DNA from: Escherichia coli
GTDB lineage: Bacteria > Pseudomonadota > Gammaproteobacteria > Enterobacterales > Enterobacteriaceae
Assembly: GCF_044324785.1 (NCBI RefSeq)
Contig: NZ_CP172127.1
Length of the DNA stretch: 64,000 bases
Direction: 5' to 3' (one strand)
A program made the position numbers and the translations under genes. Below, piece by piece: positions 24,026 to 29,006 of this stretch (positions are counted from its first letter, which is position 1; every line of letters begins with the position of its first letter). Below the pieces are notes generated by a model. The model did not search any database, was not told where the DNA came from, and saw only the letters and a list, made by a program, of their open reading frames with translations.

Positions 24026-24119
24026 CGATATGCGCCGAGTTTTTTTAAGCTAGTGAGTACACGGCTGCAGAATTCCGCTACAATCTGCGCCACTATTCTT
24101 CCCATGCTCAGGAGATATC

Positions 24120-24710
24120 ATGAAAGTAGCAAAAGACCTGGTGGTCAGCCTGGCCTATCAGGTACGTACAGAAGACGGTGTGTTGGTTGATGAGTCTCCG
24201 GTGAGTGCGCCGCTGGACTACCTGCATGGTCACGGTTCCCTGATCTCTGGCCTGGAAACGGCGCTGGAAGGTCACGAAGTTGGCGACAAATTTGATGTCG
24301 CTGTTGGCGCGAACGACGCTTACGGTCAGTACGACGAAAACCTGGTGCAACGCGTTCCTAAAGACGTATTTATGGGCGTTGATGAACTGCAGGTAGGTAT
24401 GCGTTTCCTGGCTGAAACTGACCAGGGTCCGGTACCGGTTGAAATCACTGCGGTTGAAGACGATCACGTCGTGGTTGATGGTAACCACATGCTGGCCGGT
24501 CAGAACCTGAAATTCAACGTTGAAGTTGTGGCGATTCGCGAAGCGACTGAAGAAGAGCTGGCTCATGGCCACGTTCACGGTGCGCACGATCATCACCACG
24601 ATCACGACCACGACGGTTGCTGCGGTGGTCATGGCCACGATCACGGTCATGAACACGGTAGCGAAGGCTGCTGCGGCGGTAAAGGTAACGGCGGTTGCGG
24701 TTGCCACTAA
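24120..24710 (+). CDS. slyD: FKBP-type peptidyl-prolyl isomerase / metallochaperone SlyD
   Basis: 196 aa ORF with His/Cys/Gly-rich C-terminal tail (HGHVHGAHDHHHDHDHDGCCGGHGHDHGHEHGSEGCCGG). Confidence 0.97.
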   Translation: MKVAKDLVVSLAYQVRTEDGVLVDESPVSAPLDYLHGHGSLISGLETALEGHEVGDKFDVAVGANDAYGQYDENLVQRVPKDVFMGVDELQVGMRFLAETDQGPVPVEITAVEDDHVVVDGNHMLAGQNLKFNVEVVAIREATEEELAHGHVHGAHDHHHDHDHDGCCGGHGHDHGHEHGSEGCCGGKGNGGCGCH

Positions 24711-24724
24711 TACCGAAAAAGTGA

Positions 24725-24753
24725 CAAAAAAGCGGGGAATCCCCGCTTTTTTT
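24725..24753. terminator. bidirectional intrinsic terminator between convergent slyD and slyX
   Basis: A-run, gcgggg-aat-ccccgc stem-loop, T-run (aaaaaagcggggaatccccgcttttttt). Confidence 0.8.
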
Positions 24754-24758
24754 ACGCC

Positions 24759-24977
24759 TCAATAATGTGGCGGTGGCGTTTCTTCAGCCTGCGACGCGAT
24801 GTTCGACGGCTGGCTGGCTTTTAGCTTCTCGGTCAGCAGACGCAGATGATCGCGCAGTTTCGCCATCTCCATTTCATGAGCGGTCACCGTGACGTTCAGT
24901 TCTTCAATGGTGATTTCCTGAAAAGCCAGTCGGCTCTCCAGCTCTGCCAGGCGTGCTTCCAATGATAAATCCTGCAT
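24759..24977 (-). CDS. slyX: protein SlyX
   Basis: 72 aa [31 protein letters not shown], coiled-coil-like. Confidence 0.93.
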
Positions 24978-25057
24978 GATTCACCTCTTTTGTCGAATGG
25001 TTGCCGCGGATTCTACTTAACTTTGCCGCCCGAGACAGCACTCATTTCGCGGTCATC

Positions 25058-25085
25058 GAAACTAATTTAAACAAAAAGAGTCTGA
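25058..25085 (+). promoter_or_regulatory. putative sigma-E promoter of fkpA
   Basis: -35 GAAACT (25058-25063), 17 nt spacer, -10 TCTGA (25081-25085), close to the GGAACTT-N16-TCTGA consensus; about 110 bp upstream of fkpA. Confidence 0.45.
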
Positions 25086-25197
25086 AAATAGATGATAATA
25101 GGGCGTGTCTGTATGTAGATTTGTTCGACAACGCTTTATAGTACCCTTCTGATAATAGTTAACCCTGGGGTGAGATGCCCCGATCCTGGAGATATGG

Positions 25198-26010
25198 ATG
25201 AAATCACTGTTTAAAGTAACGCTGCTGGCGACCACAATGGCCGTTGCCCTGCATGCACCGATCACTTTTGCTGCTGAAGCTGCAAAACCTGCTACAACTG
25301 CTGACAGCAAAGCAGCGTTCAAAAATGACGATCAGAAATCAGCTTATGCACTGGGTGCTTCGCTGGGTCGTTACATGGAAAACTCTCTTAAAGAACAAGA
25401 AAAACTGGGCATCAAACTGGATAAAGATCAGCTGATCGCTGGTGTTCAGGATGCATTTGCTGATAAGAGCAAACTCTCCGACCAAGAGATCGAACAGACA
25501 CTGCAAGCATTCGAAGCTCGCGTGAAGTCTTCTGCTCAGGCGAAGATGGAAAAAGACGCGGCAGATAACGAAGCGAAAGGTAAAGAGTACCGCGAGAAAT
25601 TTGCCAAAGAGAAAGGTGTGAAAACCTCTTCAACTGGTCTGGTTTATCAGGTAGTCGAAGCCGGTAAAGGCGAAGCACCGAAAGACAGCGATACTGTTGT
25701 CGTGAACTACAAAGGTACGCTGATCGACGGTAAAGAGTTCGACAACTCTTACACCCGTGGTGAACCGCTCTCTTTCCGTCTGGACGGTGTTATTCCGGGT
25801 TGGACAGAAGGTCTGAAGAACATCAAGAAAGGCGGTAAGATCAAACTGGTTATTCCACCAGAACTGGCTTACGGCAAAGCGGGTGTTCCGGGGATCCCAC
25901 CGAATTCTACCCTGGTGTTTGACGTAGAGCTGCTGGATGTGAAACCAGCACCGAAGGCTGATGCAAAGCCGGAAGCTGATGCGAAAGCCGCAGATTCTGC
26001 TAAAAAATAA
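25198..26010 (+). CDS. fkpA: periplasmic FKBP-type peptidyl-prolyl isomerase / chaperone
   Basis: 270 aa ORF with signal peptide and C-terminal FKBP domain. Confidence 0.97.
   Translation: MKSLFKVTLLATTMAVALHAPITFAAEAAKPATTADSKAAFKNDDQKSAYALGASLGRYMENSLKEQEKLGIKLDKDQLIAGVQDAFADKSKLSDQEIEQTLQAFEARVKSSAQAKMEKDAADNEAKGKEYREKFAKEKGVKTSSTGLVYQVVEAGKGEAPKDSDTVVVNYKGTLIDGKEFDNSYTRGEPLSFRLDGVIPGWTEGLKNIKKGGKIKLVIPPELAYGKAGVPGIPPNSTLVFDVELLDVKPAPKADAKPEADAKAADSAKK

Positions 26011-28520: not shown

Positions 28521-29006
<486 letters not shown>

Follow-up and report, generated by a model that had tools for sequence, protein, structure and literature searches.

The fkpA gene of Escherichia coli was reportedly first linked to the envelope-stress sigma factor sigma-E (RpoE, sigma-24) by Danese and Silhavy in 1997, a study that is cited in Rhodius et al. 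2006. According to the latter paper, FkpA, like Skp and DegP, is one of the chaperones in the core sigma-E regulon; to count towards this core, a transcription unit had to be a predicted sigma-E target in six or more of nine related genomes (Rhodius et al., 2006). The promoter rules given in the same paper are a -35 element GGAACTT and a -10 element TCAAA, separated by a spacer of 15-19 nt with a strong preference for 16 nt, and a transcription start 5-6 nt past the -10 and 25-28 nt past the -35, usually at a purine (Rhodius et al., 2006). UP-like sequence is described for such promoters as an accessory feature that is common but not obligatory.

The E. coli fkpA promoter itself has been approached from several sides. 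In a tagRNA-seq study of a sigma-E induction time course, PfkpA was reported to respond like mapped sigma-E start sites; the earlier-mapped fkpA 5' end, part of an unbroken series of 12 tagged nucleotides, was classed there as a processing site, and the true start was predicted at MG1655 position 3477528. The RegulonDB sigma-24 promoter list, copied into Cho et al. (2014), contains the entry SigE_16 (3475447-3476047, older coordinates), which spans the motif described below. We rejected the use of the "SigE" entries of Cho et al. (2014) as E. coli sigma-E ChIP data, because the text says that they were copied from RegulonDB, and they count here as curation only. The RNA polymerase and sigma-70 ChIP regions RNAP_1610 and SigD_1373 of that study span the fkpA 5' end (Cho et al., 2014). 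In Salmonella Typhimurium, a sigma-E ChIP-seq peak was assigned to fkpA/slyX, and fkpA was named among the genes with previously identified sigma-E promoters. Our paper search with the promoter string found no match, and the coordinate numbers returned irrelevant papers alone.

We have very little doubt that the motif at 25058-25086, described below, is the sigma-E-dependent promoter of E. coli fkpA. This promoter is already known and well documented, and nothing reported here is new on sigma-E or on fkpA. The present analysis supplies the motif with its spacing and position and shows that it is selectively conserved; sigma-E dependence and the transcription start are taken from the literature.

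The motif and its genomic setting

The sequence analysed is a stretch of 64,000 nucleotides of E. coli DNA (the window), in which the gene order around the motif, read from the list of open reading frames, is kefB, yheV, slyD, slyX, fkpA, yheO, and tusD/C/B. The fkpA coding sequence (25198..26010, plus strand) specifies a periplasmic FKBP-type prolyl isomerase/chaperone of 270 aa according to its open reading frame and RefSeq annotation, and its divergent neighbour slyX lies at 24759-24977 on the minus strand. We identified fkpA through the RefSeq annotation of E. coli DNA that is identical or nearly so: of 5,426 complete genomes of this species, 5,425 contain a match to the 601 bases of window 24700-25300, with slyD, slyX, and fkpA annotated in the matched region, and the top identity among these genomes was 99.8%, not 100%. 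When 25000-25220 was compared with K-12 MG1655, two substitutions were found, at 25003 and 25028, both towards the slyX end of the intergenic region and far upstream of the motif. The window is from a non-K-12 E. coli; the promoter and the whole leader are 100% identical to those of MG1655, so that K-12 data are directly transferable. Coordinates were converted as MG1655 = 3502617 minus window position, by which the fkpA ATG at 25198 becomes 3477419 on the complement strand.

A GAAACT-N17-TCTGA motif about 110 bp upstream of fkpA, resembling the sigma-E consensus, had been proposed in the preliminary description, and on all of these points it was right. GAAACT (25058-25063) is followed by 17 nt and then by TCTGA (25081-25085) on the plus strand of the slyX-fkpA intergenic region, with the end of TCTGA 112 nt 5' of the fkpA ATG. 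The N17 counted from the 6-mer becomes N16 when the count starts from the 7-mer, as it does in Rhodius et al., and this geometry is optimal. In that convention the -35 element is GAAACTA (25058..25064, plus strand), which agrees with GGAACTT at 5 of 7 positions and keeps the AAC core intact. It is followed by an A-rich spacer (25065..25079, plus strand; 16 nt when counted as 25065-25080, up to the TCTGA pentamer), a length within the 15-19 nt range and equal to the preferred one. The -10 element GTCTGAA (25080..25086, plus strand; GTCTGA at 25080-25085) is of the GTCAAA type and has the T, the C, and the trailing A of the (G)TCAAA/TCTGA class. GAAACTA-N16-TCTGA as a whole obeys the published -35, -10, and spacing rules. 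No A/T-rich UP-like sequence was seen upstream of the -35, where 25030-25057 contains about 43% A+T as counted by hand and is poorly conserved; judging from the sequence, any UP element of this promoter would be weak.

How much the match is worth on its own was judged from chance expectation. The exact motif string was seen once against 0.01 expected, a figure that belongs to a pattern picked post hoc, after the sighting. A looser sigma-E class, comprising sites that agree with GGAACTT at 5 or more of its 7 positions, retain AAC, and have TCnnA after 15-17 nt, gave 15 matches when both strands of the window were counted; Markov-1 simulations predicted 23.6 +/- 4.8, and such sites are not enriched. 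With 15 seen and about 24 expected, the sequence match by itself is weak evidence and not beyond chance, and the lesson is that a 5/7 match to the -35 carries no information alone. On the plus strand of the 220-bp intergenic region, about 0.04 looser-class matches are expected. The fkpA motif has the best sigma-E-like score in this region (10/12); the matches at 9/12 are shifted readings of this motif, and separate sites between slyX and fkpA score 8/12 at most. We also considered a second sigma-E site with TCTGA at 25148-25152 and rejected it; it is without an acceptable -35 and is not among the region's best scores.

Some features of the neighbouring genes were noted in passing. A 12-bp GC-rich hairpin at 24726-24752, between the convergent slyD and slyX, resembles a bidirectional terminator. 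Over the slyD 3' end there is a weak Rfam match to the Salmonella sRNA STnc40, with 26.8 bits, which is below the gathering score of 45 (E = 0.021). The slyD gene (24120-24710, plus strand) is nearly fully overlapped by an antisense open reading frame of 199 aa (24108-24707). This frame is most likely spurious, a product of the codon bias of slyD and of its repetitive, His/Gly/Asp-rich tail. For slyX, two promoter candidates were seen: a conserved GGATTCTAC at 25008-25016, which reads TAGAAT on the minus strand about 30 nt 5' of the slyX ATG, and TCTACA-16-TATCAT at 25092-25119 on the minus strand, which is poorly conserved and overlaps the start zone of the fkpA sigma-E promoter.

Transcription start and leader

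A start zone at 25089..25094 on the plus strand is delimited by tagRNA-seq, the discriminator rule, and the RegulonDB-derived SigE_16. The bases that follow TCTGA are A25086, A25087, A25088, T25089, A25090, G25091, A25092, T25093, and G25094. The tagRNA-seq position 3477528 converts to window 25089, a T located 4 nt past the end of TCTGA and leaving a 3-nt discriminator; a T start 3 nt past the -10 is unusual for sigma-E and counts against the assignment. A discriminator of 5-6 nt leads instead to G25091 or A25092. The 600-bp RegulonDB window SigE_16 was calibrated on the neighbouring SigE_18 (CGAACTT-N16-ACAAA inside rpsG, upstream of fusA), from which we infer a start at about 25092-25094, good to about 2 nt. 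The positions 25089 and ~25092-25094 bracket the G25091/A25092 predicted by rule, and the exact +1 base varies by source. Two further statements of the preliminary description can be compared with these data: the start expected about 7 nt past 25085 agrees with both positions within a few nucleotides, and the assignment of fkpA to the envelope-stress regulon is matched by the listing of FkpA in the core sigma-E regulon by Rhodius et al. (2006).

The site on which SigE_16 was calibrated is itself a sigma-E-like match in the window. It lies at 28901-28928 on the plus strand, in the 3' part of rpsG and about 170 nt before fusA, and coincides with SigE_18, a sigma-24 region that Cho et al. (2014) took over from RegulonDB. 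The site probably corresponds to the known fusA-tufA sigma-E promoter.

The leader of the sigma-E transcript (25089..25197, plus strand), which begins in the start zone and ends at the fkpA ATG, is about 105-110 nt long. Between the sigma-E promoter and fkpA it contains a conserved block, TGTAGATTT...TATAGT, at 25114-25142 (plus strand). The TATAGT at 25137-25142, which has a column identity of 0.91, is kept even in Erwiniaceae and lies under the sigma-70 ChIP region (Cho et al., 2014); it probably serves as the -10 of a sigma-70 promoter located within this leader. Its -35 candidates are weak (TAGATT or TTGATT at 15-nt spacing, TGTAGA at 17). Because the sigma-E -35 is imperfect, because no A/T-rich element precedes it, and because a conserved TATAGT is found under a sigma-70 ChIP region, the data suggest that a constitutive sigma-70 promoter in the leader serves fkpA as well, with the sigma-E promoter as the inducible part.

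Further downstream, a conserved hairpin (CUGGGG-UGAGAUG-CCCCGA, 25165-25183, plus strand) ends 4 nt 5' of the Shine-Dalgarno sequence GGAG (25188-25191). RNAalifold gave 7 pairs, one of which shows a compensatory change from G-C to A-U; the four sequences with this change all belong to Erwiniaceae, so that it may be a single evolutionary event. The fold of the whole leader is not stabler than that of shuffled sequence (z = 0.27), and a search of 24700-25400 returned no Rfam match in the fkpA leader. It seems doubtful to us that the stress transcript, through its hairpin or the length of its leader, is under a post-transcriptional control of its own (stability, translation, or small-RNA access), unlike the short housekeeping transcript.

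The order of events at this promoter would be the one expected from the sigma-domain contacts and RseA signalling, both of which are established sigma-E knowledge. Misfolded outer-membrane proteins would cause the anti-sigma factor RseA to be degraded, and the free sigma-E would join core RNA polymerase. Its domain 4 would then sit on the -35 element GAAACTA (25058-25064), and its domain 2 would bind and melt the -10 element GTCTGA (25080-25085) located 16 nt downstream. Transcription would proceed from 25089-25094, which is 4-9 nt past the -10, and the resulting fkpA mRNA, with its leader of about 105-110 nt, would allow more of the periplasmic chaperone FkpA to be made.

Conservation among species and alternative readings

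The case for a sigma-E promoter rests on conservation and the literature, not on the sequence match alone. We collected 80 loci by an FkpA protein scan, taking one genome per species and only species other than that of the window. The Enterobacteriaceae sampled were Escherichia, Citrobacter, Salmonella, Klebsiella, Raoultella, Enterobacter, Kluyvera, Kosakonia, Buttiauxella, Atlantibacter, Franconibacter, and others; outside this family, the sample included Erwinia, Pantoea, Mixta, and Winslowiella (Erwiniaceae) and one member of the Yersiniaceae, Chimaeribacter. When the 260 nt upstream of fkpA were scanned, the top sigma-E-like site lay about 140 nt 5' of the ATG in nearly all loci. With the census pattern G[GA]AA[CA][TG]N-N15-17-TCnnA, the motif was found in 80/80 species at 136-146 nt before the fkpA ATG, and its spacer was 16 nt long in 78 of them. 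The promoter is in this way kept upstream of the orthologue in all the related genomes sampled, as is characteristic of the core regulon. Conservation at the same position in every one of the 80 species is far beyond chance.

The variation that does occur is confined to particular positions. Among the 80 species, the -35 reads GAAACTT in 40 and GAAACTA in 37, with GGAACTT, GGAAATT, and GAAACGT in one species each, while the -10 reads TCTGA in 46, TCGGA in 19, TCTCA in 8, TCCTA in 3, TCTTA in 2, and TCACA and TCGTA in one each; the TC and the final A of the -10 are invariant. In a 25-genus alignment, the column identity of GAAACT was 0.98, and the identities along the -10 were 0.96 (G), 0.96 (T), 0.96 (C), 0.64 (T), 0.72 (G), 0.96 (A), and 0.92 (A), against backgrounds of 0.52 for the intergenic DNA upstream of the motif and 0.69 directly downstream. 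The spacer sequence is conserved at 0.82 overall and is divergent in Erwiniaceae. In Erwiniaceae and Chimaeribacter, the spacer and the flanks are essentially unalignable, but both boxes and the distance between them are kept. The footprint agrees with the sigma-E logo position by position, which would be expected if the bases recognised by a two-domain sigma factor were under selection.

Two other readings of the same block have to be weighed against a sigma-E promoter. It is barely conceivable that the resemblance is due to chance and has no promoter function, fkpA being transcribed only from elsewhere, for example from the TATAGT at 25137-25142. Loose sigma-E-like matches are common by chance and are not enriched in the window (15 vs 23.6 expected), the -35 agrees at only 5 of 7 positions, and the 5' end of fkpA falls in a sigma-70 ChIP region, with the conserved TATAGT downstream of the motif. 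A motif without function would not account for a position and spacing kept in 80/80 species while the flanks diverge, nor for the sigma-E response and the start just 3' of the motif that have been reported, the literature placing a sigma-E-dependent 5' end within 25089-25094. In addition, a downstream sigma-70 promoter would add to the sigma-E promoter, not replace it.

We also hold it to be very unlikely that the conserved block is mainly the binding site of another protein or part of a minus-strand slyX promoter, to which the sigma-E likeness would be secondary. A consensus scan did return the sigma-70-like TCTACA-16-TATCAT on the minus strand, running from 25119 to 25092 with a start near 25085, and the conservation of the spacer within Enterobacteriaceae (0.82) exceeds the background, as such a reading would have it. 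Its -10 is poorly conserved, though, with the key last T lost in Citrobacter and Salmonella, and the minus-strand scan gave one site against 0.5 expected. What is kept out to Erwiniaceae is exactly GAAACT and GTC..AA, not the spacer, which agrees with a two-box sigma site on the plus strand.

Inspection of the block by eye recognised no other transcription-factor motif. The CpxR consensus is GTAAA-N5-GTAAA. The GAAAC-N5-TAAAC repeat in the block was considered as a CpxR or OmpR box and rejected by eye, since it fits neither this consensus nor that of OmpR.

A sigma-E promoter of fkpA is accordingly the reading that we retain. What it adds is a small gain, namely a footprint over 80 species in which precisely the bases contacted by sigma-E are kept by selection, as far as Erwiniaceae and one member of the Yersiniaceae. 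It also means that a textbook envelope-stress promoter is recoverable from raw sequence by a scan.

Comparison with known sigma-E promoters

The closest described system is the sigma-E promoter of fkpA in E. coli K-12, with which the present locus shares the promoter and leader sequence, the gene, and the divergent slyX. There is no difference inside the promoter, and the two substitutions lie further upstream in the intergenic region. In Salmonella enterica subsp. arizonae, fkpA is preceded by GAAACTA-N16-TCTGA at -139, so that the motif is unchanged, but the flanking intergenic sequence is different.

Other sigma-E promoters with a -10 of the TCTGA type include degP and rpoH P3. They have in common with fkpA an AAC-containing -35, a 16-nt spacer, a GTCTGA-type -10, and membership of the envelope protein-folding regulon. 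In the fkpA -35, by comparison, position 2 is A in place of G and position 7, in E. coli, is A in place of T, whereas the better -35 GAAACTT is found in half of the fkpA promoters of the other species. Unlike degP and rpoH P3, fkpA is without a clear A/T-rich UP element.
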